Assembly (NCBI GenBank): GCA_048571215.1
Contig: CP182352.1
Span: 1,568,001 to 1,632,000 of the forward strand
Direction of reading: 5' to 3'
Source: Halarcobacter sp.
Lineage (GTDB): Bacteria > Campylobacterota > Campylobacteria > Campylobacterales > Arcobacteraceae
Length of the DNA: 64,000 nt
The position numbers were made by a program, and so were the translations under genes. The notes beneath the pieces are model-generated. The model saw nothing but the letters and a program-made list of their open reading frames with translations, did no database searches and was not told where the DNA came from. Below, piece after piece: positions 8,808 to 43,300 of the stretch (positions are counted from its first letter, which is position 1; every line of letters begins with the position of its first letter).

Positions 8808-9647
8808 CTATTTTAATAAGCTTGAAATCTCTTCAATCTCTTTAATACTTAATTCAAAACTATCTAATAGTAAGTCCTCATTCATATGAGTTTTAGAAGT
8901 GGTACCATTCAATGGTACTACTCCTATTTGATTTAAAAACTTATAAAAAACAACCGCTACACTTTTATCATATTTTGATGCTAAGTAGTTTACAAATTTA
9001 TTTGATAATATATGTGGGTTTGCAGTGAGAGACCAAAAACTCTCATATATTATCCCTTTATCTTTACACCAAGCTCTAATCTCTTTGTCATAAGAGCTTT
9101 GGGCATAAAATCTATTTTGTACAATAGATGGCTTAGTATCTACATTTTTATATAAATATTCTAAAACATCCAAATCATAACAATTACTAATACCCAACTG
9201 TCCCACTTCTTTGTTTTTATAAAAACTACTCATAACTTCCCAAGCTTTTAAAAGTTTAGCTCCTGGAAATATTGGTGAGTGTAAAATATAAGAATCTATA
9301 TAATCAAGTTTTAGATTCTTTTTAGAAGTTTCAAAAGACTTTTTTATCTGAACCTCTAAAGAGTCTTCTGCAAGATAGGGCATGTTATTTATATCTTGTC
9401 CATCTATAGGAGTAAATTTTGTTTGAATATATATCTCCTCCCTTTTAAGTCCTTCATTAAAAGCTTTTGCTATCCCCTCACCCACTAAATCCTCTTGATA
9501 ATGTTTTGGTTGACAAGCTGTATCTATCCCTTTAAAGCCAGTTTTTAAAGCCTCATAAACAAAATCTGCTGTTTGCTGTTTTTTCCAAGCAGTTCCATAA
9601 ATCATATTTGGTATTTTAATATTTTGATTTGATAAAAAATAGTTCAT
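8808..9647 (-). CDS. Aldo/keto reductase
   Basis: YGTAWK, GIDTACQPKHY, IQTKF, YILHSP, LGISN motifs. Confidence 0.88.
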   Translation of the reverse strand: MNYFLSNQNIKIPNMIYGTAWKKQQTADFVYEALKTGFKGIDTACQPKHYQEDLVGEGIAKAFNEGLKREEIYIQTKFTPIDGQDINNMPYLAEDSLEVQIKKSFETSKKNLKLDYIDSYILHSPIFPGAKLLKAWEVMSSFYKNKEVGQLGISNCYDLDVLEYLYKNVDTKPSIVQNRFYAQSSYDKEIRAWCKDKGIIYESFWSLTANPHILSNKFVNYLASKYDKSVAVVFYKFLNQIGVVPLNGTTSKTHMNEDLLLDSFELSIKEIEEISSLLK

Positions 9648-9780
9648 AAATAAATCCTTCGTATTTTTTATTATACTAAAGCAAAAATTCTAATTCTAGC
9701 TTATAAATGTCTATTATATAAACATCCTTTTGTAAGATTAAATTTTAAAACACTATATAATTTCAATAAAAAGAGCAAAA

Positions 9781-9999
9781 ATGGCAAAAGAGTTCAACCC
9801 AGATGATTTTTTTAGTGTAAAAACAGTAGAAGAAATCGTACCAAAATTTAAGCACCTATATAATCAAAACTACCAAGAACTAAGTTTAAATGAAGAACTA
9901 GTAAAACTAAACTACGAAATCACTTCACCTGAGTACAAAGACAAAAGCTTTGCAAAGTTAGAAGAGTATTTTAAATATGAAGTTGATACGATAGTCTAA
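9781..9999 (+). CDS. Small acidic hypothetical protein
   Basis: 72-aa ORF, host-like codon use, upstream GAG RBS-like site. Confidence 0.6.
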   Translation: MAKEFNPDDFFSVKTVEEIVPKFKHLYNQNYQELSLNEELVKLNYEITSPEYKDKSFAKLEEYFKYEVDTIV

Positions 10000-10203
10000 A
10001 ATGTTAAAAATTTTAATCCTATTGATTCTTTTGTAGATATAAATTAATCTGTTTGAAAACATACTGTTTTCCTACATAATAATTATAAAAATATTATATC
10101 ACATAAGTTGGTTTTGTTAAAATTTAATTTTTACTTATAAAATTCGGCTCAATGCAAATAAAAAACCATCAAAAATTGCTTATAATTGAATAATAACGAT
10201 AAT

Positions 10204-10770
10204 TTAAGTATCTAATACCTTCTTTATCAAATATGCACTATGTAATCTTTCAATCAATGTAAATTGATTATTAATAGGAGAATGTATTTTATTTTCGAAC
10301 AGTTTTATCTTTTCTAAGCCTACATTTCCATTTGTATAAATTAAAATAGGTATATTTTCATCAACACTTTTCAATAACTTAAACCATTCTTCTAATGTTT
10401 TATCATCTTCTGCAAATAAAATAATTATAGAAAAGTTATTTAATTTAATTTTTTCATTACAATTATTTATGTTCTTCATATTTCTAAATTTAGAAAATAT
10501 AGCCATATTATTAATTTTATTTTTATTATCATTACAAATTAAAATCTTACTTTCTCTAAAATCTTTAATATTTTTTATATCATTTAAATGCTCTAAAATT
10601 TCATTTCTATATCCATCAAACATTGAAGATAATTTATCTTTAATATTAGCATTAAAATAATCAGAAGTTTTTTTATCACATATAGTCTTAATAAGAAAAT
10701 ATATTAATACACCTAAGAATCCAATAATCAAGGCTAAAACTACTTTTGATATCAAACTTTCAAATTCCAT
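10204..10770 (-). CDS. CRISPR-associated membrane-anchored protein (N-terminal TM helix, helical linker, small alpha/beta receiver/Rossmann-like domain); candidate type III effector
   Basis: TM VVLALIIGFLGVLIYFLI; strands KILIC, FSIIILF, IPILIYT; last gene of the cas operon, ATG 2 nt after upstream stop. Confidence 0.6.
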   Translation of the reverse strand: MEFESLISKVVLALIIGFLGVLIYFLIKTICDKKTSDYFNANIKDKLSSMFDGYRNEILEHLNDIKNIKDFRESKILICNDNKNKINNMAIFSKFRNMKNINNCNEKIKLNNFSIIILFAEDDKTLEEWFKLLKSVDENIPILIYTNGNVGLEKIKLFENKIHSPINNQFTLIERLHSAYLIKKVLDT

Positions 10771-10772
10771 TT

Positions 10773-11832
10773 TTATTTTCCTCTTTTTCCATTAGATTTT
10801 TTTCTCTCAATAAAATAACTTGAATAATCATAAGACTCAATTGAATTATCAATTTTATGAAGGATAGAATTTATCTGAGTATAAATACTTTCTAAATCTT
10901 TTATTTCATCCTTCACAATAACTCTATTATGAGCTATTGCATTTCTTATCTTGGATAGTTTTTTCCACTTCACATCAAATAAATTTTGTTTATTTTCTAA
11001 TAAATTGCAAAAATATAATTCCCAATTTGTTTTAGGTAAAAACTTTTCTAAATCATCTATACAAGTTAATTTTCTCTCTAAGTATCTATTAATCAACTCT
11101 TTTTTTTCTTCTTTCGTTAATCTCTCATATGGTATAAACAAAAAATCCCTTATTTCTTTAAAGTCTACATAATACAAAATATCTCCACACTTGTAATCTA
11201 AATTATTATTTTTTCTTTTAACTCCATTTTTAATTTCTGTGGGAATAGTTTTGTCATACCAATTTGCACCCATAAAACGATACATTACCTTTGTTAAAAC
11301 TTTTCGCATCATAAAGCTTTGGATAATATTCATTACATATATATGCCTCATATGAATTAGATAGAACTAAGGGCTTATTTTTAGTTTCATCCATAATTAC
11401 TTTTTCTAGATACTCTTTTATATTTTCAAATAAACTAATTTTTTTTATACTATAAGGTGTATTCTTATAAGATATTTCCGAATCATCAACTTTTGGTTCA
11501 TTTTCATTTGTGCCAGTAATGTCCATTTCTTCTTCATAGAATAAATCACATTTTTTTTCAATATTATCAAATGTAATGGAAAAAATGAATATTCCTTCTT
11601 TTAGCATTTTAAATTGATAATTAAACTTTATTTCTTCATCATCATTAATAAAAAAATATTTACCATCTTTATTTATTTCTATAGATATATCTATTTCTTT
11701 TCCATCAATTTCAAATCTACTAATACTTTCCAAATTTCCTAAAATAATATGATTAAGAAAAAAATCTTCTTCTTTTTTGATTTTTGAAATAGCATTAACA
11801 TCAATTAAATATTCTAATTCGTAATTATTCAT
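10773..11832 (-). pseudogene. HEPN-domain RNase candidate (Swt1/Apea-like) split into two overlapping ORFs (11254-11832, 10773-11351) by a frameshift near 11310
   Basis: C-terminal ORF has RNAIAH (R-x4-H); YYPKLY in frame 1 is followed after one extra base by MRKVLTKVM in frame 2; second ORF lacks an evident RBS. Confidence 0.7.
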
Positions 11833-11834
11833 AA

Positions 11835-12935
11835 CTATTCTTCTATCTCACACAATACCCATCCAAAAGGTAGTAAGGTATCAATACTATCTTCATTCTC
11901 TCCAAAAAGCCATGTAGTTGTTTCTTCTTCTAAGTTTTCCCAAATATTTTTCTTTCGTTTAGGACCGCCACCACTAACTTTTACTTTTATATTTCTTAAA
12001 CCATCTATTGTTACAGTTCTTGCTCCACTATGTTTTCCAATCCGTAATAAAAATTGATTTTTATTTTTAAACTCAAAGTTTAAATACTTTTCATAAAAAT
12101 CTTCTCTAAAATAATCAATTATAAAATCATATTCTAAAGAATCTTTATATAAATTTTTTTGTCTAAACATAGAATCAAATAATTCATAATAATGATCATT
12201 GCATGATTTTATTATCTTTTCAATTGTTATTTGCTCTTTAGAATTATAATCTTTAATTTGTAAAGATGTTTCAAATTCAGATTTTTCACATATAACTTCA
12301 ATTTTTGTTGATGGTCCTTGATTGTCATCTTCAAATCTCTCTTTATTTAAAGAAAAACCTATAAGAGAGGAACTATTTAGTATTTTTGTATCAGATATAG
12401 AAATATTTTTAAAAATACTTTCACTTGGCATTTGAAAAGTTTCTTTCAATTTTGAGTAGTTACTATTTTTGTAAATATATTCTTGATATGCAGTTGAGAT
12501 TGAGCCTTTGATACTACTTCCTGTAATATATGGATTACCAGTTATTTCATCTTTTATTGTTTTTTGAATTTGAAATTGGTTTATTACAGGTTTTTTTATT
12601 CCTGAGCCTTCAAATTTAGATATTATACCTATTCTCCTATTATACTCTTTTTCGATACCCTGGGTAACTTTCACTTTTAAGGTAAAAATATTTTTTACTA
12701 TATCTTTTCGTTTTTTTATAAATTTATTTATAGAAGATAATGCTAAGTTATCTTCTCTTGTTACTAATTCTTCAAATTTTGTTTTATCTTCTTTTGATAA
12801 ACTTTCAAAAAAACTAAATTCATCAAATTCATAAAGGAAACCATTATCTATAACGAAGTTTGTAGGTTCATATGATTCTCCTATGCCAATATGCATAGGA
12901 GTTAAAAGAGTCATTTTTAATTTATAAGTCTTCAT
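11835..12935 (-). CDS. csm5: Type III-A RAMP Csm5
   Basis: LTPMHIG, PYITGSSIKGSI, LRIGKHSG, LPFGWV. Confidence 0.9.
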   Translation of the reverse strand: MKTYKLKMTLLTPMHIGIGESYEPTNFVIDNGFLYEFDEFSFFESLSKEDKTKFEELVTREDNLALSSINKFIKKRKDIVKNIFTLKVKVTQGIEKEYNRRIGIISKFEGSGIKKPVINQFQIQKTIKDEITGNPYITGSSIKGSISTAYQEYIYKNSNYSKLKETFQMPSESIFKNISISDTKILNSSSLIGFSLNKERFEDDNQGPSTKIEVICEKSEFETSLQIKDYNSKEQITIEKIIKSCNDHYYELFDSMFRQKNLYKDSLEYDFIIDYFREDFYEKYLNFEFKNKNQFLLRIGKHSGARTVTIDGLRNIKVKVSGGGPKRKKNIWENLEEETTTWLFGENEDSIDTLLPFGWVLCEIEE

Positions 12936-13831
12936 TTTATTTCCTTTAAAGGAAAGAGTATAGAATACCCTTGATGTATAGCTTTTTCAAATGATGATAT
13001 ACCTTTAATAGCTTTACCATCATAAAATCTCTCTTTAGTGAATTTATATTTAATCACTGTTGAGTTTTTTGCTAAAAGTATAGGTTTTTTAAATGGATTA
13101 TCATTATCTACTTGGCTGGAGTTTTTACCAAATTTTGTTAAAGGAGAATAATATAATTCTTCACACTCTAAATTTTCCAATGAAATAGAAGATAATGTCA
13201 TATACGTTGTTGTTTCATTTTTTAAACTTATTTCTTCAAAATCTTCTTTTTGAAATATAAACCTACCTTTTCCTATAGAAGTTTTTTTGCCATAACCAAA
13301 CTCTGATATAAACTCCATACACTCTAATAATTTTTCTTTTTTAAATTGTTTTGATAATAAAAAATATATATCAAATTCAAAATCTTTTATTGGATATTCT
13401 TCTATACCAAAAGGTGAGAATCTATCTTTTTCGGTCCTAAAAGCAAGATAATTTAATGAGTTTTTCATAACATTTATTTTTTTATTTAAATCAACTCTTC
13501 CCTCTATATTATTGATATTTTTAGCATTTATATAATTTCCATTTTCTAAATCTTTTATTTTCAGCCACAATTTTTTTGAATTATTTTTCTTTTCTTTACT
13601 ATTTTCTTTTAAAAATTTCATAGGCATATTTGGCTTTGGAAGATAACCTTTAGGGAAGCCATCTGAAACAATCAAAAAGGGATTTTTATCATATTCTAAA
13701 AGTAATTCTTCTAACTTATCTTCACCATACTTATTTTTAATTGCCCAACATATTTGACCAAATAGAGTATCTCCTTGCAAAGATGTTGCAAAATTAGAAA
13801 TAGGCTTTATAGTAAGTTTATAAAGTTTCAT
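12932..13831 (-). CDS. csm4: Type III-A RAMP Csm4 (Cas5 group)
   Basis: GDTLFGQICW, VSDGFP..YLPKP, GYGKKTSIGKGRF; start moved to ATG 13831. Confidence 0.9.
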   Translation of the reverse strand: MKLYKLTIKPISNFATSLQGDTLFGQICWAIKNKYGEDKLEELLLEYDKNPFLIVSDGFPKGYLPKPNMPMKFLKENSKEKKNNSKKLWLKIKDLENGNYINAKNINNIEGRVDLNKKINVMKNSLNYLAFRTEKDRFSPFGIEEYPIKDFEFDIYFLLSKQFKKEKLLECMEFISEFGYGKKTSIGKGRFIFQKEDFEEISLKNETTTYMTLSSISLENLECEELYYSPLTKFGKNSSQVDNDNPFKKPILLAKNSTVIKYKFTKERFYDGKAIKGISSFEKAIHQGYSILFPLKEIK

Positions 13832-13833
13832 CA

Positions 13834-14511
13834 CTATTCCCATTTATCTTTATTACTAAAACTCACTCTTCCATAACCTCTTGTACCGTTTCCACCTAAA
13901 TAATCATCTTCAATAAGTTCTAAACCTTTTTTCACTATATCTTTTAATTTATCTTGTTCATCGTCAAATGGTTTATCTTCAATAATTTTTAAAGAAATAA
14001 TATAATTAAACTTTACCCCCCTACATACTCTTTCAGTTTGTCTTGGATGTTTTGCTGTTCCATTTGTTCTATCTATTACATTTTCATATTTTGATTCGGT
14101 AAGATTTTTTATATCTTTTTGTTCAATAAGACTACAATCAGAAAAGCTAAGTCTTGTAACACCATAATTTTCTCTTTTTTCTTCAGAATTCGCATCTCCA
14201 AAAAGTTTTATTAGATTTACTGCTTTCTCTTTTTTTCCCTCTTTTTCAAAAACTACATCAGAAAAATATTTTGAAGAAAAAGGTTTCCCTTTTTCCTTAT
14301 CATCTCTTCCAACATTAACCAATCCAAAATGCCATTCTAGTAAACTTCTCATCTTACCTTTTATACTACTTCCAGGGACATAAGGTTTATCAGTATTTAT
14401 ATCTTTTATAACACTATTACTAACACCTCCAATTTTCATAACATCATCACCAGCACCAATATGTAAACCTGTTAATACTTCTAACTCTCCAACTAATTTT
14501 AATATTTTCAT
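13834..14511 (-). CDS. csm3: Type III-A RAMP Csm3 (Cas7 group), catalytic Asp apparently replaced by Ser
   Basis: TGLHIGAG, PYVPGSSIKGKMRSLLE, PRQTERV, YLGGNGTRGYG; IGGVSNSVIKD in place of IGxxDxxVIKD; start ATG 14511 with GAGGGG RBS. Confidence 0.93.
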   Translation of the reverse strand: MKILKLVGELEVLTGLHIGAGDDVMKIGGVSNSVIKDINTDKPYVPGSSIKGKMRSLLEWHFGLVNVGRDDKEKGKPFSSKYFSDVVFEKEGKKEKAVNLIKLFGDANSEEKRENYGVTRLSFSDCSLIEQKDIKNLTESKYENVIDRTNGTAKHPRQTERVCRGVKFNYIISLKIIEDKPFDDEQDKLKDIVKKGLELIEDDYLGGNGTRGYGRVSFSNKDKWE

Positions 14512-14512
14512 T

Positions 14513-14875
14513 TTAATCTCTCCCCTCAAAAAAACCTAGCACAGCTTCAAAAAAAAGTTTAAAACAAAGCAAAGTATCTTTTATATTTTCTTTTGTAATT
14601 AAACTTACACATTGACTCATCATATCCTGAAATTCTTTTGATACAACACCCCTACTTCTTGCATATGATACTTTTGAATTTAACATTTTTACAAAAGGAA
14701 TAATATTTTCAACATCTTCATTATTTTTATTCAACTTATTTTCTAAATCCATTATATATTCATAAAAATTTCTAAGTTGTGTTTTTTTAGTTTTACCTAT
14801 AGCTAAAGCCCATTCTTGCGCAACTTTATTAAAAAGTTCTTCATTTTTTGTATAATCTAATACTATATTTTGCAT
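14513..14875 (-). CDS. csm2: Type III-A small subunit Csm2 (Cas11)
   Basis: TQLRNFY, SKVSYARSR, FFEAVLGF; position between cas10 and csm3. Confidence 0.9.
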   Translation of the reverse strand: MQNIVLDYTKNEELFNKVAQEWALAIGKTKKTQLRNFYEYIMDLENKLNKNNEDVENIIPFVKMLNSKVSYARSRGVVSKEFQDMMSQCVSLITKENIKDTLLCFKLFFEAVLGFFEGRD

Positions 14876-16441
14876 CTAGTCTCTCCCTTTATAAATAAAT
14901 TCACTTATTACCATCTTTGAAGCTTTTGGATTTTTCTCTATTTGTGTATCTAAGACTTTATATAAATCCTCATAACTTTCTTTTTTCATATTTCTTCTAA
15001 AACTATAATTTAGTTTTGATTTCCACATAGTAGATAAAACATCACCCTCTTTAACTTTTATTGACATTTCTATTAATTCTAAAAGAGAATAAAAAAATGC
15101 ACTTTTTTTATCTTCTTCTTCGATTTTACTAAGCTCATTTTCTAATACTTTTTTTACATCAATATACTCTTGCCACTTTACAGTTTCATCAAAAAGTGTA
15201 ATAGAGTCTTTATCTTGGTTTTCTTTTGATTTTTCAAGTAACTCTTCAATCTTAGAAGACATATAAGATATTGGTACATTTTCTTTACTTAGCATAATTG
15301 CTACACTTAATGTAAGGTTTTCGTTTGAAAAATTTCTAAATTCTTTATATATTTTTTCTGAAAAATCTATTATTTCATTCCATGCACCTATAATAAAAAA
15401 GTCATCTCCACCTGTAAAAACTACATAAGTATTTTTATAGTTTTCTTCTAAAAATTCTGGTACTTTTTGAGTGAAAAAGTTGTTTAAAGTATAAGAAAAA
15501 TAAATATAGTTTTCATAACTATCAAAAGCATTACTCTTATCTTTAATAAATTCTCCTAAACTATCAACATCACCTTTTATTACAGCTAAGTTTTCTGCAC
15601 CTTCTGTATTTTTTGCTAAATCATCAAAACTATAAGCCACACCTTTTTCGTTTGATTTTACATAAGATTTAATTTTCCAAAATTCTTTTAGGCTTTTAAA
15701 TTCATCATTTTCATTTTCTGAAAATGAAACATGGTAGTTATTGAAAATCTTTATACCACTATCATCATTTGAAATTTTCATATAATTTTTACTTGCTAAA
15801 TTTTCACCTAACTTTATAAAATCGTCACAAATTTTACAAACTTCTTTTTCCTCTTGTATTCTTCTTATTCCACAGGTTTTACATAGTGTTTGATTAGTTG
15901 GAACATCAACATAATCCAAAACTGTATTTTGATTTTGTAAATTAAACTTATTAAACTTTGCAAACTCCATCTTTTCGTTTAGTTTTTCTCTGATTTCTCT
16001 AAATTCTTTAGGATTAATTAGATATGATTTTAAAATATCCATGGATACAAGCTTTACCCCTGCTAGGGCAAAAAAGTTTTCTATAAAGTAATTATCTACT
16101 TCTTTTTGAATCTCTTCAATTTTATTTTTGTCAACTCTTGGAGATAGTATTTCTATTTTTCCAGCCTCACTAAAAATAATATTTTCTTCCTCTAGTCCTA
16201 AAACTTTTAGTATATATAGGGATAATACTTTTGTAAATATTTGTACATAAGCTGATTTTGCTCTTAATACTTTATAAGCTTTTGATGATGGTACATTTTC
16301 AAAAATAAAGTTTTGTATTCCATAAAAATCTGCACAAATGATAGTCAACTCATTGTCTTTTAAAATATCATCTATTTTTAAAATATCTTTTTTAAATAAT
16401 TCACTATATTTTTTATTAAATACATTTTTAACTTCTATCAT
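14876..16441 (-). CDS. cas10: Cas10/Csm1, short form lacking HD domain, cyclase motifs intact
   Basis: ADFYGIQNFIF (Palm1) ~35 residues from the start, CxxC..CxxC, KGDVDSLG and TGGDD (Palm2); only ~521 aa. Confidence 0.93.
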   Translation of the reverse strand: MIEVKNVFNKKYSELFKKDILKIDDILKDNELTIICADFYGIQNFIFENVPSSKAYKVLRAKSAYVQIFTKVLSLYILKVLGLEEENIIFSEAGKIEILSPRVDKNKIEEIQKEVDNYFIENFFALAGVKLVSMDILKSYLINPKEFREIREKLNEKMEFAKFNKFNLQNQNTVLDYVDVPTNQTLCKTCGIRRIQEEKEVCKICDDFIKLGENLASKNYMKISNDDSGIKIFNNYHVSFSENENDEFKSLKEFWKIKSYVKSNEKGVAYSFDDLAKNTEGAENLAVIKGDVDSLGEFIKDKSNAFDSYENYIYFSYTLNNFFTQKVPEFLEENYKNTYVVFTGGDDFFIIGAWNEIIDFSEKIYKEFRNFSNENLTLSVAIMLSKENVPISYMSSKIEELLEKSKENQDKDSITLFDETVKWQEYIDVKKVLENELSKIEEEDKKSAFFYSLLELIEMSIKVKEGDVLSTMWKSKLNYSFRRNMKKESYEDLYKVLDTQIEKNPKASKMVISEFIYKGRD

Positions 16442-17259
16442 CAAATCTCCTTAACCTCTATTTTCCCAAGTCCAAAAACTGTTTGTTTTCCTACATTTAA
16501 TAGTTCTGCTATTTTTAGTATTTTATAGTTTTGTTCACTTAAATCTTTTACAACTAAACTTCCCATTACACCATCAAATTTCATTTTTGTTTTTTGGGGA
16601 CTACTATATCTTGTAAGATTTTTTTTATAGAGGTTTTTATTTACTACTTTATACTCTTTTGTTACTTCTAGTTTTGGCGCATTTGGATAGATGTATTCAT
16701 ATCTTTTTCTACTTGAAAGCAAGATATCAAAAAGGTCTAAACTATCATCATATATAAGTTTATTTTCTTTTTTTATTCTTATGGGTGTTAGTATATTTAT
16801 AGCTACGTCTTTTTTTGTTTCACTCTCTTTATACTCTTTTTGTGTAATATTTTTTAAATCAAAGGTTTCGTTTTCATAAACCAAAATATCATTTACATAT
16901 ATTTTAAACTCATTAAAATACTTATTCTCTTTTCCAAGACCAATAGAAGTTAATAACTTATGAAAACTTGAAAGTATAAAAGGAAGTTGTTCACATACCT
17001 CATCAAAAAGATAAAAAGAAAAATCATAAGATTTGTTGCCAAGAGATATATCAAATCTATATTTATGATAATTATCTTCCAAATAAAATGTGTAAAAAAG
17101 ACAATTATCTTTTGCAAAACAATTTTCACATTCGTATGTTGGATTTATGCAAACCACTTTTTTAAGAGCATACCCCAAAGCCCCACGAAGCTGACTTCCA
17201 GTAAAATAAGGAGGCATATACTCTTCATATATTTTTATATCTATTTTGTAATATTTCAT
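16441..17259 (-). CDS. cas6: CRISPR endoribonuclease Cas6
   Basis: GSQLRGALG, Cys cluster, C-terminal VGKQTVFGLG Gly-rich loop. Confidence 0.9.
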   Translation of the reverse strand: MKYYKIDIKIYEEYMPPYFTGSQLRGALGYALKKVVCINPTYECENCFAKDNCLFYTFYLEDNYHKYRFDISLGNKSYDFSFYLFDEVCEQLPFILSSFHKLLTSIGLGKENKYFNEFKIYVNDILVYENETFDLKNITQKEYKESETKKDVAINILTPIRIKKENKLIYDDSLDLFDILLSSRKRYEYIYPNAPKLEVTKEYKVVNKNLYKKNLTRYSSPQKTKMKFDGVMGSLVVKDLSEQNYKILKIAELLNVGKQTVFGLGKIEVKEI

Positions 17260-17262
17260 CAA

Positions 17263-17478
17263 ATAACTTTTAAATATTGTATTTTCTTTTATTATATTAT
17301 AAATTATATTAATCTTTTAAAATAACTTTTTCCAACTAAATTTAAAAAAATCTATGATAAACTACCATAATATCAAAGTTCTTTAAAAACCTATTGTTTT
17401 TAATAAAATGCTTGGAAAAATCCAATCAAATCCCATAAAAAGGGGAAATTAAGATTTTAAAAGCACCTATTTACTTTG
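17263..17478 (+). promoter_or_regulatory. CRISPR leader / divergent promoter region
   Basis: AT-rich non-coding stretch between the cas6 start and first repeat; degenerate repeats are at the opposite end. Confidence 0.65.
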
Positions 17479-19597
17479 GTAGAGACCTGACATATAAGGG
17501 ATTAAAACGACTATCAAGTGCTTTTATATTTTTATTATCTACTGTAGAGACCTGACATATAAGGGATTAAAACTTAAAAACAGACATCTATATTCTCCTT
17601 ATTGTTTGTGTAGAGACCTGACATATAAGGGATTAAAACTTACTAGAGCTGTAAATTTTACAGAGTTACCAGAGTGTAGAGACCTGACATATAAGGGATT
17701 AAAACGAGTTATTATGAATTTTTATTGATTTTGTTAAAAAGTAGAGACCTGACATATAAGGGATTAAAACTATTATTACTTAATATTTTATTTTATAACA
17801 ATTTTTCTGTAGAGACCTGACATATAAGGGATTAAAACTACTATTTAAAGCCATGATATCCCCCTTACTTTTCTGTAGAGACCTGACATATAAGGGATTA
17901 AAACGTAGATAACTAAACATTCTATTATTTTATCAACTTGTAGAGACCTGACATATAAGGGATTAAAACCTGGGTGAAAAACTTGGAGTGGTGGGAAGAA
18001 ATATGTAGAGACCTGACATATAAGGGATTAAAACAAATAAGATAATCCCTCTGCAATAGTATTAAATCCGTAGAGACCTGACATATAAGGGATTAAAACT
18101 GAAAAAGAGAAACACTAGCAGAATGAATATAATTACGTAGAGACCTGACATATAAGGGATTAAAACATTTGTAATTAATCCATATCTTGTAATGCTCCTT
18201 GTAGAGACCTGACATATAAGGGATTAAAACGCATCTTTGTATATGTCTTTCCATATCCAAAAAGCTAGTAGAGACCTGACATATAAGGGATTAAAACATA
18301 ATCACCAATTAGCTTTAAATCTTCTTTTTTATAGGTAGAGACCTGACATATAAGGGATTAAAACCAATTTTACTTAGTTCAAAAAGACTGTAATCTTCAT
18401 TGTAGAGACCTGACATATAAGGGATTAAAACTCCACTAAGTCTTTTTTGGAAGTCTTTAAGTTAAGAGTAGAGACCTGACATATAAGGGATTAAAACATG
18501 ACACTTGAAACTTTTTTTAACACAAACGAAACAGTAGAGACCTGACATATAAGGGATTAAAACTTAAAAGCGTGAAGTTGATCTATTAGTTCTGTACCGT
18601 AGAGACCTGACATATAAGGGATTAAAACTATAGTTCCACATCTTTTGTCTAATACTTATTTTGTAGAGACCTGACATATAAGGGATTAAAACATTAAAGG
18701 TTGAGCTGTATCATAGTTTACTCCTAGTGTAGAGACCTGACATATAAGGGATTAAAACTAGCATATGCTATTTTGTTTTCGACACTAGATAAGTAGAGAC
18801 CTGACATATAAGGGATTAAAACTTTACATAAGTTTCATTTAGTGTTAAATATGCTTCTGTAGAGACCTGACATATAAGGGATTAAAACTTTGAAAATGCA
18901 AAAGGTCTTTTATGTTCCGCATCATTGTAGAGACCTGACATATAAGGGATTAAAATTGAAATAAAATTTATCAAACCAAATAATAAACCTAGTAGAGACC
19001 TGACATATAAGGGATTAAAATGCAGATACAACACAAAAACCATTATCTTTGAATGCTGTAGAGACCTGACATATAAGGGATTTAAAATACCTATGCCTAA
19101 TTGTTGTCTACCTTGTACTTGTAGTAGAGACCTGACATATAAGGGATTAAAATTTCCAAATATGGTGAACAGTAGGTGCAATATCATGTAGAGACCTGAC
19201 ATATAAGGGATTAAAATAATTTTACTGTTGCACTTACACTAGTTGCAGCCATTGTAGAGACCTGACATATAAGGGATTAAAATAATGATGTAAATACTCG
19301 TAATCAGGACAATCAAACTGTAGAGACCTGACATATAAGGGATGTTTTTAATAAATAAGGAATAACGAATAATGAATAATCTTCTTCAACTTTTCATTTT
19401 TCACTTTTCATTATTCATTTATATTGACCTGACATATAAGGAATGTTTTTAATGAATAATGAATAATCTTCTTTAATTTTTCATTTTTCACTTTTCATTA
19501 TTCATTTATATTGACCTGCCATATAAGGGATTAAAACGATACACACATATCAAATTGTTTCTCTTCAAAGCTAGTAGAGACCTGACATATAAGGGAT
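17479..19597 (+). CRISPR. CRISPR array: 30-bp repeat GTAGAGACCTGACATATAAGGGATTAAAAC, 28 full repeats plus disrupted trailer repeats, 29 spacers of ~34-38 bp
   Basis: Repeats counted by eye from 17479 to 19254, partial copies at 19320, 19426, 19513, 19574; 3' end ATTAAAAC resembles the Cas6 8-nt handle. Confidence 0.98.
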
Positions 19598-19677
19598 GTT
19601 TTTAATGAATAAGGAATAACGAATAATGAATAATCTTCTTCAATTTTTCATTTTTCACTTTTCATTATTCATTACTA
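19344..19677. repeat. Three copies of a 68-82-bp heptamer-based inverted-repeat element interleaved with CRISPR repeat fragments
   Basis: GTTTTTAAT(GAATAAT-like)n-CTTCTT-(TTTTCAY)n TATTCATT starting at 19344, 19445, 19598. Confidence 0.88.
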
Positions 19678-19678
19678 T

Positions 19679-22721: not shown

Positions 22722-23096
22722 ATGATAATAAAAAACTTAAGAATAGAAAATGGTTGGTCACAAGAAAAATTAGCTGAAATCACTGGATTGAGTTTAAGAA
22801 CTATACAAAGAGTAGAAAAAGAGGACAAAGCTAGCTTGGAATCTCTAAATCTTTTAGCTAATGCTTTTAGCTTAGATATTAAACAACTACAAGATAAATT
22901 AAAAAATAAACCTTTTAAAACTGAAACTGAAACTAAAAATAATCATAAGAAAATAATCACAATTTTTATTGCTGTAAACTTACTACTTATTACTATAAAT
23001 CTTTTAACAAACTCTAGTCACTTATGGTTTATCTATCCATTATTAGGATGGGGAATTCCACTTTTTTATAAAATATATATAAAAGAAAAGCTTTAA
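22722..23096 (+). CDS. XRE-family HTH protein with C-terminal 2TM domain
   Basis: GWSQEKLAEITGLSLRTIQRVE; WFIYPLLGWG. Confidence 0.88.
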   Translation: MIIKNLRIENGWSQEKLAEITGLSLRTIQRVEKEDKASLESLNLLANAFSLDIKQLQDKLKNKPFKTETETKNNHKKIITIFIAVNLLLITINLLTNSSHLWFIYPLLGWGIPLFYKIYIKEKL

Positions 23097-24337
23097 AATC
23101 TACTATTTTTTATCACTTTTTCTATCTTTTTTTTATCCACTTTAAGATTTTTTGCTTCTTGTTTAAATCTACTTATAAAATACTCTTTTATGTTTTTTAC
23201 TAACTCCTCTATCTCTTTGTCACTTCCTATTGAAAACATCTTTGAAACAGCTTTTATATCCTCTATACTAAAATCATCTCTTTTTCCATTTATACTCATT
23301 TGGTGTTTTGCTGTATAGTCATTGCCTTTATTATATGTGATATCATATAAAGGTGCAGTTTTCCAAACTCCTTTTTCATCCATCAAAAAAGAGAAGTTTT
23401 TTGTATGATCATCTTGATTACAAGTAATTACATTGTATAACATATGGATAAATGCACTCTCCAATTGCTGTCTATCTTTAGTAAGGTATTCAACTACTCT
23501 TAAATACTCTTCGTAAGAGTAAGAACCTGGTATATTAAAATTTGTATGAGTAAGCCCGCATAAAGAGTGCATATGTATTTTTTTATCTTCTATAATATCA
23601 AATCTTTTTACTAAAAGATGACTAAAATCTCTTTCGTGAAAAATCTCTACATCTGCTACGTTTAAATCAAGCTCTTTTGCTATTTTCATATAGATATACT
23701 CAACTTTTCCATAATCTGCTGGAACATAATCTTTTCCAACACCATCAAATTTTATAAGATAGTTCTCAAAACCTTTTTTAAAAGGTAGTCTTCCTGATAC
23801 TATTTCATTTGTAGTTTTATTCCATTGAATAACCGCTTTTGCTCTAGCTCCCCCTGCACTTCCTCCTGATGATATTAGTTCAGGAATTGCAACTGTAATA
23901 TCCCCTTTTATAATCTTTCTAGCATCATCAACCAAAGATTTTATCTCTAAAGATTCTTTTAAAATCTCTGTTGGTTCATTTGGAATATACTCCAAAGCTC
24001 CCATACCAGTTTTTCCTATATATGCTAACTTTTGTATTGATGATAATTCATACTCATTTATCCCTTTTTTTGCATAAAATCTTTTTATAACCTCATTTCC
24101 AAATTTATCAGGTAAAGAATCAAAAAATACTCCAGCTAAACCTTCAAAAAATCTATCATCACTATTGTTATAAACAGCAGTTGTCTCTAAAGGCAATTTT
24201 ATAGGGGATATCTCTAAACCACTATTTTTAAACTCATCTTCATATTCAAAATATATATTATCTTTCTCATCTAAAGATAAAAACCCAACTATTTGCCCAT
24301 AAAGTTGTACAATCAAAGAATCATTATTCGTTTTCAT
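23093..24337 (-). CDS. hipA: HipA-family Ser/Thr kinase toxin
   Basis: DSLPDKFG, GSAGGARAKA P-loop, NQDDHTKNFSF, APLYDIT. Confidence 0.92.
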   Translation of the reverse strand: MKTNNDSLIVQLYGQIVGFLSLDEKDNIYFEYEDEFKNSGLEISPIKLPLETTAVYNNSDDRFFEGLAGVFFDSLPDKFGNEVIKRFYAKKGINEYELSSIQKLAYIGKTGMGALEYIPNEPTEILKESLEIKSLVDDARKIIKGDITVAIPELISSGGSAGGARAKAVIQWNKTTNEIVSGRLPFKKGFENYLIKFDGVGKDYVPADYGKVEYIYMKIAKELDLNVADVEIFHERDFSHLLVKRFDIIEDKKIHMHSLCGLTHTNFNIPGSYSYEEYLRVVEYLTKDRQQLESAFIHMLYNVITCNQDDHTKNFSFLMDEKGVWKTAPLYDITYNKGNDYTAKHQMSINGKRDDFSIEDIKAVSKMFSIGSDKEIEELVKNIKEYFISRFKQEAKNLKVDKKKIEKVIKNSRF

Positions 24338-24722
24338 TTTTTGCCTTTAACTTATCTAACAAAATTCCTATTCTTGTGGGTTTTGATTCATTTTTTGATT
24401 TAGAAGAATCTATTTTTTCTTTTTTGCTTGCTCTTTTTCTTTCAGGTTTTTTTATATTTTTGTTTAATACTTTTTCTTTTGGTGAAAAACTGTTTTTAAT
24501 AAATAGATTGTTTAACTCCATAGTTTTACCCAATGCTTTTGTTATATTAATAAAGTTTTCAAAACTTCCTTTGCCATTTTTTTCAAATATCTTATATGTA
24601 GATAAAGATAAACCTGATTTTAAAGCCATATCCTCTTGAGTAATATTTTGCCTTAATCTTTCATCTTTTATTTTATGTGCAAACTCTTTTGATATCTCTT
24701 GTGTAGTACTAAACTCATTCAT
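24324..24722 (-). CDS. XRE HTH antitoxin (HipB-like)
   Basis: RLRQNITQEDMALKSGLSLSTYKIFE; overlaps hipA start. Confidence 0.82.
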   Translation of the reverse strand: MNEFSTTQEISKEFAHKIKDERLRQNITQEDMALKSGLSLSTYKIFEKNGKGSFENFINITKALGKTMELNNLFIKNSFSPKEKVLNKNIKKPERKRASKKEKIDSSKSKNESKPTRIGILLDKLKAKNENE

Positions 24723-38043: not shown

Positions 38044-40374
38044 CTATTCTAGGGTAGCTATTTCTACTTTTATTTTTCTAGAACTACTTAAACCTTTTTC
38101 ATCAACTACTCTTACTACAAACTCTCCAAGTCTTGGTTTCCAAAAGAAAGGTTTGTTTGATTGGCTAGTACCTACAAAAGATTTATTTACATACCAAAAC
38201 GCCTTATAGGAATCCCCATCTAAAATAGCTGTAAAAGGGATTGTAGTATTTTCTATTTTATCAAGTTCAAGTGTGTATATTAAGCCCTCTGTAGGTGATT
38301 TAATAATTGGTTCTAAACTTTTTTGAGTGTTTTTTGTACATCCACTTTCATATGGAGGTGGACTTATTTTTTCTATTCCAGCCATTTGAAAAATCTCTTT
38401 TATATCACTTGGCCAAAACTCAAAAACTTTCATTTTTGTTTTTCCTTTTTCTGCCTTGCAAGCCCTTAGACCTGATTTTATATTTATTGGAATTTCCCTA
38501 TAAACATTTGAAACTTTTATGGGTGATACTCCTGGAATAAACCAAGACTTTTTAACTTTTGGGCATAATTTACTAGGAAGAGTTCCTGTACTAGAACAAA
38601 TATCTACTTTTTTTATATTAAGTTTTTCAGGGGACTTATCATTTTCAAACACATCTTTTTCATCTAATGCTTTCATTATATTAAAAAACAATGGGGCTGC
38701 AACTTCACGTCCAATAAAGTTTGCATTTGAACTTCCATCAAAATTCCCTATCCATACAACTAAGATGTGTTTATTTCCAAGTCCTACACTTAAAGCATCC
38801 CTATAGGCAAATGATGTTCCAGTTTTCCAAGCATACTTTTGCTCTTTTTTGTGTAATCCAATAAAATCTATTTTATTTACTGCTGGATTTTGGCGAAGCA
38901 TATCAAGGGTTAAGTATGAACTCTCCTTTGAAAGTAGTCTTTTTTTTGTTTGGTTTTTATCATCTTTTACCATTTTGATGTCTTTTAACTCTCCCCCATT
39001 TGCTAAAATACCATAAAGCTTTCCTAACTCAAGTAGTGTAGTTTCCATTCCACCAAGAGCAATAGACATTCCATAATGGGAAGATTCTTTCATCTTTGAT
39101 ATTCCTGCATTTTGTAAAAAGCTATAAAAACTTGGATTTTGAAGTTTTGAAGCTAAACGAACTGCTGGTACATTTCTACTAGTTATAAGTGCCTTTGTTG
39201 CACTAATAGGTCCTAAAAAAACACGATCATAGTTTTCAGGAGTATAGGCTCTTAGATGCAAAGGTGTGTCTTTTAATAAACTATTTGGATGAATAAGACT
39301 TTGATCCATAGCTTGGGCATAAACAAATGGTTTAAGGGTTGAACCTGGTGAACGTTTAGCTGTTACTCCATCAACTTGACCAGATATCTCTTTATTGTAA
39401 AAATCAGCTGATCCAAGCCAAGCTTTGACCTCCATACTATTTTTATCAAGAAGAAGAACAGCAGCGTTTAAAAGCCCTTTTGTTTTATTTTTATTTATCC
39501 ACTTTTTTACCTCTTTTTCAATGATATTTTGTTTATTCATATCTAAAGTTGTTTCAATCACTCCAGATTTAAATCTATCTGCTTCAAGATAATCTATAAA
39601 GTGAGCAGCATAAAAAGGGGTATCATCTCTTGTATATATATTTAAAGCTAGATTCATCCAAATATCACTATTTTCCCTCTCTTTTTTGGTTAATCTCTCT
39701 TTATAAATCTCATATAAATCATCTCTTGCCTTAATCATATTTTTATAGCTACTTTTATTTAGTGGATTTCTTTTTGTGGGATTTTGTGGAATAACAACAA
39801 GGCTTAAAGCTTGTGGAATATTAAGTTGGGATGCTTTTTTATGAAAATAAACTTGACTTGCTGCTTCAATACCTTCAATATTTGCCCCATAAGAAACACT
39901 ATTAAAATAAAACTCTAAAATTTCTTGTTTTGTATAATGATGCTCTAACCATAAAGCATAAAATATCTGTTGTATTTTTCCTGATAACTTATAAGATTGT
40001 AAATTAAAAGCTACCTTTGCAACTTGCATTGTAATAGTTGATGCACCAATACGTCTCTCTTTTGTAATATAAGTTGAAACAAAAGCACGCCAAAGTGCAG
40101 CAAAATTTACTCCAGGATGGGAATAAAAATACTTATCTTCATATAAAAGAGTTGCATCGATTACATGCTTTGATATACTCTTATAAGGGATCCACAATCG
40201 ATACTTTTCATCATCTGAAAGGGTAAGTCTTAGAACCTTACCATTAGCATCTTTGTAAAGTGTTGAGTAAGTATGCCAAGATAGTATTTTTTTATCAGGA
40301 TTTTGGCTAAATTTATATATAAAATATCCTCCAAAAAAAAGGAGGATAAAGAGCGATAAAATTAGTTTTTTCAA
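38044..40374 (-). CDS. pbpC: Penicillin-binding protein 1C
   Basis: EDKYFYSHPG, GASTITMQ transglycosylase motifs; STLK, SRN, KTG transpeptidase motifs; adjacent to a2M. Confidence 0.93.
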   Translation of the reverse strand: MKKLILSLFILLFFGGYFIYKFSQNPDKKILSWHTYSTLYKDANGKVLRLTLSDDEKYRLWIPYKSISKHVIDATLLYEDKYFYSHPGVNFAALWRAFVSTYITKERRIGASTITMQVAKVAFNLQSYKLSGKIQQIFYALWLEHHYTKQEILEFYFNSVSYGANIEGIEAASQVYFHKKASQLNIPQALSLVVIPQNPTKRNPLNKSSYKNMIKARDDLYEIYKERLTKKERENSDIWMNLALNIYTRDDTPFYAAHFIDYLEADRFKSGVIETTLDMNKQNIIEKEVKKWINKNKTKGLLNAAVLLLDKNSMEVKAWLGSADFYNKEISGQVDGVTAKRSPGSTLKPFVYAQAMDQSLIHPNSLLKDTPLHLRAYTPENYDRVFLGPISATKALITSRNVPAVRLASKLQNPSFYSFLQNAGISKMKESSHYGMSIALGGMETTLLELGKLYGILANGGELKDIKMVKDDKNQTKKRLLSKESSYLTLDMLRQNPAVNKIDFIGLHKKEQKYAWKTGTSFAYRDALSVGLGNKHILVVWIGNFDGSSNANFIGREVAAPLFFNIMKALDEKDVFENDKSPEKLNIKKVDICSSTGTLPSKLCPKVKKSWFIPGVSPIKVSNVYREIPINIKSGLRACKAEKGKTKMKVFEFWPSDIKEIFQMAGIEKISPPPYESGCTKNTQKSLEPIIKSPTEGLIYTLELDKIENTTIPFTAILDGDSYKAFWYVNKSFVGTSQSNKPFFWKPRLGEFVVRVVDEKGLSSSRKIKVEIATLE

Positions 40375-40377
40375 ATA

Positions 40378-43300
40378 CTATTTACTTGTAATTACTTTTA
40401 TTTTTGACGCAGCTGTATGTGATACAATATCTGGGTCATACATAGAAACAGCCAAAGCAGATGGAACAGTAAACTCACCAGCAGCAGTAGCTTTAACCTT
40501 ATAACGAAGTTCTGTCATCTTATTAGAAAAGCCAGCATAAAAAACAACACGATCTTCTCGTACATCAACATAATCAGATCTCCAATATGAATTTTTTCTT
40601 GGTACAGATTCTCTAATAACTTCAAATCCACCAGGAAGAAGGTCAATAAGAGCTACATTTGCTATATAAGATTTTTCTGTTGAACGAACCTTTATAATAA
40701 CTTCTATTTCATCACCTTGTTTTACTTCATTTACAATATTTCCTTTTTTATCAACATACTCTTTAAATATCTCAATACCCTTTGAAAATGGTTTTGAATA
40801 AGGAGTTTTATCATAACCTGACTGTACCAATTGATAAAATAAAGGTGATTTTGACTCTATTGTTAATTCTGGTTCATCTAAAGGAATATTTGCTTGCATA
40901 AAAGGTTTAATTTTTGTTTTTGGTAGTGCAATTTTTTTCTTAGCCACAACAAAAAACTCTAACTCATCTTTTCCATATTTATTATCATTTTTATTTGAAT
41001 AAGCACTTAAAGCAAGTGTAGTATAAGAAGCTGAAATAGTATTTAACTTCCCTTCAATAAGAGGTTGTAAAAGAGGCATAATATTCTCATCAACATCTAG
41101 CTCAATATTTGGAAAATGTGTTGCAACTAAATAAATATATTGTGCATTCATGGTTAGATTAGATTGAAAATCTGTGTATCCTGAAGCATATGAAGGATCA
41201 AACTCTTTTATCAATTTATCTGCTATCTTATTTTTTTTCAACAAAATATAAGAAGCTGCCATATATGCAGAAGTGATATCTTTTTCCCAATTTGTTTTGG
41301 TTTTTTGAAGTTCATCATGTAAATCAATAAGATAATTTGTTGCAAGCTCCTCATTTCGGATTAGAAGATAAATAGCTAATGCTCTACGACGAGATTCTTC
41401 TATGGAACTAGTACTTTTTCTTGCAATTTTACGAAGATAATCCATACCACCATCATATAAGTTTTTTGGCATTTTAGATAAAAGTGCATTGTTTTTTAAT
41501 TCTGTTAAAAAATGCATTGCATAAAGGGAAGCAAAATCATTAACATAATCAGAAGATGGCCAGAGAGCAAATCCACCATTGCTTAATTGTCTAGTTTGAA
41601 GCATAGAGATAACCCTATTTACTTTTGAATCAATATTGATATCTTCATATTTTGATGATTTAACTAGTGCTAGCCAAGGAAAGGTTTGAGAAATAATCTG
41701 CTCAGTACATCCATGGGGATAAGAGCTAAGATAATCTGTCAATCCACTAGCTAAAACAAAAGGTGAATTTGATGCGCTAAGTGTTTTGCTTGCCAATTGG
41801 GGATAAAGTGTTCTATCTGATTTTATAATACCAATATCTTTTTTGTATCCTGTTTTAACTATCGTCTCATAATTTTGTGCAGGTCTGATACTCAAAGTTG
41901 CACTTCGTGTTTGGAAATAATTTCCACTTTTAGCCATAAAAGAAATTTTCCCTTCACCTAAAGAGTCTTTAGCTTTAATTTTAAAAGTTACTTTATCTTC
42001 ATCCCCTTCAGAGATATTTTTAGTAATCATTTTTTGTGAAATAAGTTCTAGATTATCACTTAAATCAATAGAGATATCAATAGGAAGCTCTTTGCCACTA
42101 CCTTCTATAGAATTACTTACACCAACAGTTACTTCAAACTCATCATTAGGTGCAGCCATTGTAAGTACATTTAGAGATAAAACAAAAGGACCACGAACTA
42201 AAGTTTTTGTAAAGCTAGAACCCATAGCTTCATTGCTAACTGCCACAGCCATAACTTTTAATGAACCACTAAAGGTGTCAGGAACAATAAAACTTGTCTC
42301 TTTTTCATTGACATTTGCATCCATAATTCCAGACCAATATACAGCTGGTTTATCAAGTGTACGTTGAAAAGGATTTAGATTTGCTCCTAATGCCTCTTCC
42401 ATAGCTTGAGTACCACCACCAATACCTGCTGCTTCAATATAACGACTAAATTCAGGCAAGATAAGATCCAACATCTGATATGTTTGAACATCTAGTGCTC
42501 TTTTTTTTAGAAAATGTTTTAAAGGCTCAGGAAGCTTATATTTTGCCACTTGAAGAATCCCTTCATCAATAGCATAAACAATAATTTTTGATTTTCTATC
42601 TGCTTTATATTTAATATTTAGTTTTTCACCCGGTTTTATGATTTTTGGAGTATTTAAATCTATTTTAATACGACGTTTGTCTTTATTTATATTAAACGGT
42701 ACGATTGCATATGATAAAGGTGAAGTAAATATCTCCTTTGAGTTAATAGAGCGAACAAAGGTTACATTAACATAGGCATTTCCCTCTAAACCTTCAGGAA
42801 GTCTAATCTTTTGAATTGAACTCTTAGTTGTGCTTGTAAACCATTTATGGGCATAAACATCATCACTTTCAATAGTGATAAGTCCTGTTCCAATATATGG
42901 AGAAACTATATTCATCTCAATCATTTCTCCAGTTTTATAAGTCTTTTTATCTAATTTTACAGATAATTCAGCATTTTTTTCTATTGCACCTGTCATATTA
43001 CTTTTTACCGCAATATGATAATCTATACTAGAAAGAAGTTTCCCCTTAGAATCTAAAATATTAAGTGTATAATTACCACCTTTTTGTGTATCTAGTTTAA
43101 TCTTTGTACCACTTACTTCAATAGAAAACTCTTTAGTTGATAAGGTATTCTTTTTGATTACTGTTTCATATCTATATCGACCATCTTTTTGTTTTGTTAA
43201 AACTGATAGATTTTGGTTTTCAAGTAGTTCTAATTTTAAATTTTTTAGATTTATCTTATTTAATTTTGAATCAACAACAATAAAATCAAGAGTTCTATCT

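Follow-up and report, generated by a model that had tools for sequence, protein, structure and literature searches.

The window analysed here, 64,000 nucleotides of Halarcobacter sp. (family Arcobacteraceae; NCBI GenBank assembly GCA_048571215.1, contig CP182352.1, positions 1,568,001 to 1,632,000 of the forward strand), carries a type III-A (Csm) CRISPR locus that has probably, if by no means certainly, been reduced to an RNA-triggered signal generator acting through ORF9, a small protein with a transmembrane (TM) helix and a receiver-like (REC-like) domain. The host genome is complete, with 3.61 Mb and 28.5% G+C, and the locus, nine tightly packed genes running along the minus strand from window position 17262 to 10204, every one of them an intact open frame, is a real and intact type III-A signalling system of the kind whose Cas10 has no HD domain. 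Cas10/csm1 and csm2 to csm5 all score above their NCBIfam cut-offs (TIGR02578, 370.6 bits against 170; TIGR01870, 58.2 against 30.6; TIGR02582, 194.9 against 90; TIGR01903, 102.5 against 55; TIGR01899, 41.0 against 38.3) and PADLOC concurs. Together with cas6 and an adjacent array they make up the gene set of type III-A, the assignment already made in a first-pass annotation of this DNA, which stands.

The operon opens with cas6 (16441-17262; 273 aa; PADLOC Cas6, 1.9e-42; Pfam CRISPR_Cas6) and continues through cas10/csm1 (14876-16444; 522 aa; TIGR02578, 2e-110), csm2 (14513-14875; 120 aa; recognised in NCBIfam, Pfam and PADLOC profile searches), csm3 (13834-14529; 231 aa; TIGR02582, 1.4e-57), csm4 (12932-13843; 303 aa; PADLOC Csm4, 1.2e-81) and csm5 (11835-12935; 366 aa; PADLOC Csm5, 1.3e-28, and TIGR01899), all on the minus strand. 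The genes after csm5, spaced by 2-nt gaps or by overlaps, are ORF7 (11254-11832; 192 aa), ORF8 (10773-11351), which encodes a stand-alone Swt1-like HEPN protein, and ORF9 (10204-10770; 188 aa), also on the minus strand. The first-pass annotation had the operon running on past csm5 into a HEPN gene and a gene for a TM-anchored alpha/beta protein; both are present, but the genes there number three rather than two, ORF7 having been overlooked.

Cas10 without an HD domain and Csm3 without its catalytic aspartate

The window Cas10 matches TIGR02578 over profile positions 225-750 of 753 only, and aligns with residues 243-700 of the Lactococcus lactis Cas10 chain 6xn3_A. Because the end of cas6 abuts the start of cas10 and leaves no room between them, the HD domain is truly absent and not just overlooked. 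Palm1, the zinc-finger cysteine pairs, KGDVDSLG and FTGGDDF are all present and aligned with their counterparts in 6xn3_A, and the protein is 69% identical to the Cas10 of two related genomes (G148 and G060; 527 and 534 aa), with the cyclase motifs invariant across genera. The earlier picture of a Cas10 that has lost HD while keeping KGDVD and GGDD is thus confirmed, both by the span of the profile match and by the alignment with 6xn3_A, at a length of 522 aa. HD domains are reported in 65% of type III-A loci (PMC11229360), and HD-less systems of this subtype are therefore common.

Residue alignment with the Staphylococcus epidermidis Csm3 (7uzw_A) places Ser37 of the window Csm3 at the catalytic Asp32, just as the first-pass annotation had read it. 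Across 184 genomes of the bacterial family, nine have a Csm3 match at E<=1e-10; the site is Ser in two of them (the window genome and G148) and Asp in the other seven, including G151 and G060, both of which carry an ORF9-type gene. Since the serine is common to two genera while 7/9 keep the aspartate, it is derived, and is not required for an ORF9-type effector; nor does it characterise the whole group, given that two of the four loci with an ORF9-type gene retain Asp. Cleavage of target RNA by Csm3 has probably been lost in the window genome, to judge from this substitution, and on an HD-less background; a literature search for natural loss of the Csm3 aspartate, which was not exhaustive, turned up nothing relevant. 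With the HD domain absent, the Csm3 aspartate replaced and the cyclase motifs intact, immunity would have to be exerted through a signal read by another protein, in line with the first-pass proposal of missing intrinsic nucleases and a signal read downstream.

The departure from the canonical arrangement is considerable. Type III-A systems with Csm6 (S. epidermidis, Streptococcus thermophilus and L. lactis; 7uzw, 6ifn and 6xn3) share with the window locus the order cas6-cas10-csm2-5 and the Palm/GGDD cyclase, but their HD domain of ~220 residues, their Csm3 aspartate and their CARF-HEPN protein Csm6 are all missing here. Searched with NCBIfam, Pfam and PADLOC models of CARF, SAVED and Csx1/Csm6, the operon proteins gave no match above noise. 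Four further type III-A loci of the family were compared. One (G179) has a full-length Cas10 of 750 aa with Csx23 and Csx20, and no CARF-HEPN Csx1/Csm6 was seen in the 14 kb retrieved; a second (G056) has a full-length Cas10 of 781 aa, Csx1/Csm6, Csx23 and Csx20; a third (G109) has a Cas10 of 695 aa and Csx1/Csm6, with Csx23 and Csx20 not seen; and the last (G006) has an HD-less Cas10 of 516 aa with Csx1/Csm6, Csx23 and Csx20. Csx1/Csm6 is therefore found in three of the four and a full-length Cas10 in two, and of all the loci compared that of the window is the most reduced. As observations in their own right, G006 combines an HD-less Cas10 with all three of Csx1, Csx23 and Csx20, and in G179, G056 and G006 (L045, L046 and L048) the csx20-csx23 pair lies upstream of cas6 with a WYL regulator.

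ORF9 is a membrane-anchored protein with a REC-like fold

ORF9 consists of a TM helix (residues 10-28; mean hydropathy 2.68), a long juxtamembrane helix that runs to residue ~66 and, over residues 68-188, an alpha/beta domain of REC-like fold. No family in Pfam, NCBIfam or PADLOC accounts for it, the FleQ match in Pfam being sub-threshold, and searches of PDB sequences with ORF9, ORF8 and ORF7 returned chance-level matches only. Its AlphaFold2 (AF2) model, built from 21 sequences, has a mean pLDDT (the predicted score of the local distance difference test) of 85.9 and comprises a helix from 2 to 66 followed by a five-stranded alpha/beta domain. Foldseek comparison of the model with the PDB gave weak, generic Rossmann/receiver matches, one of them at E<=0.001, while VIA-align of residues 68-188 against 48,161 chains placed REC/receiver domains in all of the best 50 rows (Z 10.1-11.9, root-mean-square deviation 2.5-4.1 A over 102-137 residues; 3lua_A at Z 10.4). 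CARF chains were absent from the structural matches listed by Foldseek and from the best 50 rows of VIA-align.

The family is small. A word-based search of 5.8 billion proteins found five relatives, and a search of 1.84 billion proteins found 16 representatives at E<=1e-3; one of them, a repetitive protein of 820 aa, was dropped, and five of the others are fragments. An N-terminal hydrophobic 19-mer with a mean hydropathy of at least 1.81 is present in all 16 full-length members. Only D81, T171 and L172 are conserved at 90% or above in the family alignment, the first following strand 1 and the other two lying within a conserved N..FTL.ERL stretch (168-176) that follows strand 5. Receivers carry a phospho-acceptor after strand 3; judged by strand positions in the model and not by residue-level alignment, strand 3 of ORF9 is followed by no conserved acidic residue.

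A three-copy model supports self-association of ORF9 at the level of prediction. It scored 0.68, against 0.00 for the best of three controls, with contact agreement between runs of at least 88% and a partner pLDDT of at least 76. The predicted interface is formed by residues 23-65 of the long helix and by 162-188, which include the conserved stretch. Of proteins solved as one-chain pairs, 20 of 30 attain the score mark applied, and of those solved as single chains, 1 of 23; this calibration is on two copies, not three, and the ORF9 model used an alignment made for the purpose.

The ORF9-type gene follows csm5 in related loci and holds the effector slot of a CBASS operon

Seven of the 184 family genomes have an ORF9 match at E<=0.001, and in four it is strong and full-length: the window's own genome (G000), G148, G151 and G060. 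The locus comparison covered these four, with the weak partial matches in G112, G119 and G004 set aside. Directly after csm5 of an HD-less type III-A operon stands an ORF9-type gene in all three relatives, so that the tie between the TM-anchored protein and the cas operon, proposed in the first-pass annotation, is substantiated; no gene lies between the two, and ORF7 and ORF8 are absent there. Models of SAVED and of Csx1/Csm6 each matched in none of these three genomes. The cas10 of G151 is split into two frames of 109 and 344 aa with a gap (L012, 7416-8999) and is probably a pseudogene, although the ORF9-type gene downstream of it is intact. At the level of the class, 3 of 401 genomes matched ORF9, one of them weakly and partially, and a query of genome contigs found only Malaciobacter canalis, which is G148. 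Relatives of ORF9 were found neither in viral contigs, searched with four family queries, nor by tblastn in plasmids and phages.

A further member of the family stands in a different kind of immune operon. Metagenome contig L023 encodes an ORF9 homologue (45% identity, E 2e-51), and within 2 nt after it come a CD-NTase (Pfam SMODS, 8.8e-15; PADLOC cyclase, 6.2e-74) and an E2 protein (8e-54); a WYL regulator stands upstream of this group, and downstream there is a type I restriction system. Genes so arranged make up a cyclic-oligonucleotide-based antiphage signalling system (CBASS) operon in which the ORF9 homologue takes the effector slot, and the arrangement gives new support to a role for ORF9 in reading a nucleotide signal. 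The restriction system beside it (11114-17662) has features of its own: between hsdM and hsdS stands a gene of the nucleotidyltransferase-substrate-binding (HEPN-like) kind, and the hsdS product has a Pol-beta nucleotidyltransferase domain fused at its N-terminus.

ORF9 resembles the predicted effector Cam2

Hoikkala, Graham and White (Nucleic Acids Research 2024) gave the name Cam2 to proteins with an N-terminal TM part and a REC-like domain, found at 26 loci of type III systems that lack a known effector and whose Cas10 is cyclase-positive but HD-less; the authors drew a comparison with PDB 3lua, built a trimeric model of Cam2 and put forward cyclic triadenylate (cA3) as its predicted ligand (PMC11229360). 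ORF9 has the same N-terminal TM helix, C-terminal REC fold, match to 3lua_A and trimeric model, and its setting is likewise a cyclase-positive, HD-less Cas10 with no known effector, in the window and in the three related loci. The comparison was made with the published description of Cam2 and not with its sequence, and on this analogy ORF9 fits the Cam2 class of candidate effectors, itself a prediction. The first-pass annotation had taken the effector to be undescribed, which does not hold, as TM plus REC-like proteins in such loci already bear the name Cam2 (PMC11229360). A literature search for experimental characterisation of Cam2 turned up nothing beyond that paper. The CBASS context, the loss of the Csm3 aspartate and the HEPN companion are seen here and are not reported for Cam2 in the available portions of PMC11229360.

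Other small membrane proteins of type III systems are comparable up to a point. Cam1, a TM plus CARF effector, is activated by cyclic tetraadenylate (cA4) and depolarises the membrane (PMC10808066). ORF9 shares with it small size, a membrane anchor, a cytoplasmic Rossmann-like sensor, a place beside type III genes and, presumably, an outcome of membrane perturbation and growth arrest, but its sensor matches REC and not CARF, and no CARF profile matches it. Csx23 combines a TM part with a novel cA4-binding domain (PMC11014256), and, like ORF9, is a small type III membrane protein whose TM part is N-terminal and whose soluble sensor domain is oligomeric, in ORF9 by modelling. The two are of different fold families, however, and the models PDLC01550 and PDLC01072 match the Csx23 genes of the relatives (1e-24 to 2.3e-20) and not ORF9. 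Among CBASS membrane effectors, such as the 2TM-SAVED protein of the window's own genome, the ORF9 relative in L023 holds the equivalent position, before CD-NTase and E2, but the sensor of ORF9 is not SAVED and no PADLOC model of a CBASS effector matches it. NucC and TIR-SAVED are described as common to CBASS and type III CRISPR (PMC11229360), and from its gene neighbourhoods the ORF9 family appears to be so too. A search for REC-type transmembrane CBASS effectors, not exhaustive, turned up no paper besides PMC11229360.

ORF7 and ORF8 are an insertion peculiar to the window genome

ORF7 starts 2 nt past the csm5 stop codon, matches no Pfam, NCBIfam or PADLOC family and is poorly modelled (Atlas pLDDT 0.35; AF2 without alignment, pLDDT 36.5). 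ORF8, which overlaps it by 98 nt in another frame, has a GAGG 10 nt upstream of an internal ATG at 11333, so independent translation of ORF8 is possible. The protein is helical, in keeping with a HEPN domain, and carries the R-x4-H motif (R136-N-A-I-A-H141). It matches Pfam HEPN_Swt1 below the cut-off (E 0.0026, 18.4 bits against 27.5) and, weakly, the HEPN ends of the PADLOC CARF_HEPN and Csx1/Csm6 models (3.9e-4 and 1.4e-3) as well as PDC-M34B. The neighbours of its Atlas model (pLDDT 0.68) are Swt1-like HEPN clusters.

Among proteins of near length, searches for ORF8 homologues returned ORF8 alone, and longer proteins gave none; of the 401 genomes sampled in the class 14 match, all except its own at chance level (E 0.002-0.008). 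Aligned by hhalign with three Csx1 proteins of the family, ORF8 matches over 19 columns at the catalytic motif only (E 0.052) and ORF7 does not match (E 0.32). Descent of the two frames from a single frameshifted gene, or from a decayed Csx1, was considered and is unsupported, there being no longer homologues, no PADLOC match for ORF7 and no hhalign match. Nor is the HEPN gene a conserved partner of the operon: it is absent from the three related loci, and no homologue of it was detected in the 400 other genomes of the class. As no gene separates csm5 from the ORF9-type gene in the relatives, ORF7 and ORF8 are an insertion peculiar to the window genome, and this orphan HEPN pair within the operon goes beyond the published description.

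Effectors elsewhere in the genome

A profile search found a single Cas10 in the genome. Csx1_HEPN, the Csx1/Csm6 model, Cas02710 and Card1 had no match there while their controls matched (NucC, Csx3 and other ring-nuclease families were not part of the genome-wide search); searches with PF09651 and PF09659 were not counted, their controls having been silent. The claim that no canonical effector is recognisable accordingly holds for the operon and, as regards the CARF-containing effector models so searched, for the genome, but a 2TM-SAVED effector (Pfam SAVED, 1.7e-25; PADLOC 2TM effector, 6.1e-49) is encoded at 2.21 Mb, some 640 kb away. Whole-genome typing of effectors, the check that the first-pass annotation had proposed, thus did find SAVED, which counts in part against the first-pass reading, but inside a CBASS operon (G000:C1:2210798-2213378; L027, 6798-9378), where it follows a CD-NTase broken into a pair of overlapping frames (they match profile positions 2-221 and 220-508 of 509), and in none of the three related CRISPR-bearing genomes. 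Upstream of this CBASS operon, at a distance of 2.4 kb, is a PDC-S01 gene (5.5e-139).

The CRISPR array and its spacers

The interval that the first-pass annotation gave to the system takes in, besides the operon, the CRISPR array (17479-19349, plus strand) and a duplicated remnant reaching to 19603. The array has 28 full repeats of 30 nt and 28 spacers of 34-38 nt; 22 of the 28 repeats match the consensus exactly, the other six carry one or two changes towards the far end, and a degenerate terminal repeat stands at 19320. The distal end has been duplicated (19320-19424 against 19574-19678, 96% identity), and the remnant (19508-19603, plus strand), two degenerate repeats with one spacer, lies inside this duplication. 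On the plus strand the repeat ends in ATTAAAAC; because of this ending, and of the degeneration at the 19.3-kb end, the array is read as transcribed away from the cas operon, with its leader beside cas6. The divergent region between the two (17263-17478), which is AT-rich, is taken to be the leader and contains promoter-like sites for the cas operon. One such site (minus strand, 17320-17291) matches 10 of 12 consensus positions, a match to consensus alone from a scan that is noisy in AT-rich DNA, and no terminator-like site was found in 9600-17600.

The only cas1 of the genome belongs to a type I-B locus at 3.25 Mb (G000:C1:3244975-3257874; L002, 8975-17963, and L003), with the order cas6b-cas8b-cas7-cas5-cas3-(PDC-S13)-cas4-cas1-cas2 and an array of at least 53 repeats. 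Counted by eye, its repeat and that of the type III-A array are alike at 20 of 30 positions, and we infer that a supply of spacers in trans by the type I-B cas1-cas2-cas4 module is plausible. The gene between cas3 and cas4, of 270 aa, matches the PADLOC candidate PDC-S13 (3.2e-137). The whole array had no match in phage and plasmid records, and the 29 spacers, that of the remnant included, had no target in the genome itself (best, 27 nt with three mismatches, E 0.066).

Other genes of the window lie further off. At 23093-24722 a HipA-like kinase (HipA_C, 1.9e-43) and an upstream helix-turn-helix (HTH) protein look like a hipBA-type toxin-antitoxin pair, adjoined by an HTH-2TM protein (22722-23096), and at 38044-45963 a bacterial alpha-2-macroglobulin of 1861 aa adjoins a PBP1c-type penicillin-binding protein.

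A proposed mechanism and its rivals

If the locus is indeed a signal generator acting through ORF9, its operation might be as follows. The Csm complex, guided by its CRISPR RNA, would bind a complementary transcript of the invader, whereupon Cas10, devoid of HD but with Palm and GGDD motifs intact, would make an oligoadenylate-type messenger, for which cA3 is the published guess in the case of Cam2. ORF9, as a single-pass membrane protein with an oligomerising cytoplasmic REC-like domain, would read this messenger; its most conserved residues (D81 and the stretch 168-176) are predicted to sit at the subunit interface, and binding of the ligand could be relayed through the juxtamembrane helix and into the membrane helices, so that the membrane is perturbed and growth stops, an abortive infection. 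In the window genome and in G148, where Csm3 has the serine, target RNA would probably remain uncut, and the signal would persist for as long as the complex held the transcript. On this account ORF7 and ORF8 would form a lineage-specific addition, probably an RNase module, and the spacers would probably come from the distant type I-B module with its similar repeat.

Several points weigh against this account. The signalling, ligand and membrane steps are drawn from gene content and models, and they leave the role of ORF7 and ORF8 unexplained. ORF9 is placed with Cam2 by architecture and context and not by sequence homology, and the REC/flavodoxin-like fold is a common one, and sharing it shows no function. 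The family is tiny, with its 16 representatives among 1.84 billion proteins; genomic context is known for five members (the window, G148, G151, G060 and L023), and the CBASS context for one alone. The Csm3 serine might retain some cleavage activity, and the seven family members that keep the aspartate show that its loss is not needed for an ORF9 type of effector. The split cas10 of G151 means that some loci of this type are decaying, and as no spacer was matched, activity cannot be read from targets.

The main output might instead be the HEPN protein ORF8, perhaps with ORF7 as a new sensor or inhibitor, as a signal-activated RNase like Csm6/Csx1 but with a different sensor, and with ORF9 secondary. 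The catalytic motif, the weak matches to HEPN_Swt1 and to the HEPN parts of CARF_HEPN and Csx1/Csm6, the Swt1-like neighbours of the Atlas model and the 2-nt spacing of both genes inside the operon all speak for it. Yet the three related loci that keep ORF9 do without either gene, no homologues of ORF8 were found, ORF7 has no family, the structural models of ORF7 are both unusable, and neither protein has a recognisable sensor domain, the likeness to three Csx1 proteins amounting to 19 motif columns in ORF8 and nothing in ORF7; we regard this alternative as unlikely. Still less credit is due to the idea that the distant 2TM-SAVED effector reads the signal of Cas10 in trans and that the small genes linked to csm5 are not effectors at all. 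Such a protein does exist at 2.21 Mb, the splitting of its CD-NTase means that it may have lost its own source of signal, and signalling between loci is discussed by Hoikkala et al. (PMC11229360), but it sits within its own operon ~640 kb from the CRISPR locus, is found in none of the other genomes with the same CRISPR type, and the linkage that is conserved is that of ORF9 to csm5.

A decaying or repurposed system without immune output, in which the losses of HD and of the aspartate are erosion and ORF9 is an unrelated membrane protein travelling with the operon, also strikes us as improbable. No cas1 or cas2 is adjacent, no spacer target was found, the cas10 of G151 is split and the array has a duplicated, degenerate end, all as erosion would have it. 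Against that, all nine genes are intact open frames, 22 repeats are identical, Cas10 keeps 69% identity between genera and all of its cyclase motifs unchanged, and the same serine is kept in two genera; the ORF9 relative beside a CBASS cyclase, moreover, is hard to explain for a passenger gene.

Broader significance

Three features go beyond the published description of such systems: an HD-less complex whose Csm3 has probably lost catalysis, a relative of ORF9 set in a CBASS operon, and the orphan HEPN pair inserted among the genes of the locus. A wider interpretation, which we offer tentatively and would not bet on, is that the locus encodes a naturally nuclease-free type III complex, a pure RNA-triggered cyclase without a built-in off-switch, that signals to a family of REC-fold membrane effectors shared with CBASS. 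The receiver would then be a third class of cyclic-oligonucleotide sensor beside CARF and SAVED, and ORF7 with ORF8 a new sensor-RNase pair acting on the same signal. The occurrence of the same small protein in the effector slot of a CBASS operon is an independent argument for nucleotide sensing, and the locus and its relatives, at seven or nine genes plus an array, form a compact and complete test system. With no HD domain in Cas10, the exchange of Ser for Asp in Csm3 would amount to a natural experiment in a type III complex unable to cut its target, one that bears both on what switches signalling off and on how such complexes may be used as RNA sensors. Cam2-type proteins were flagged as a priority in 2024 for what they would reveal: that the receiver domain, the commonest signalling domain of bacteria, is able to read the nucleotide messengers of immunity.

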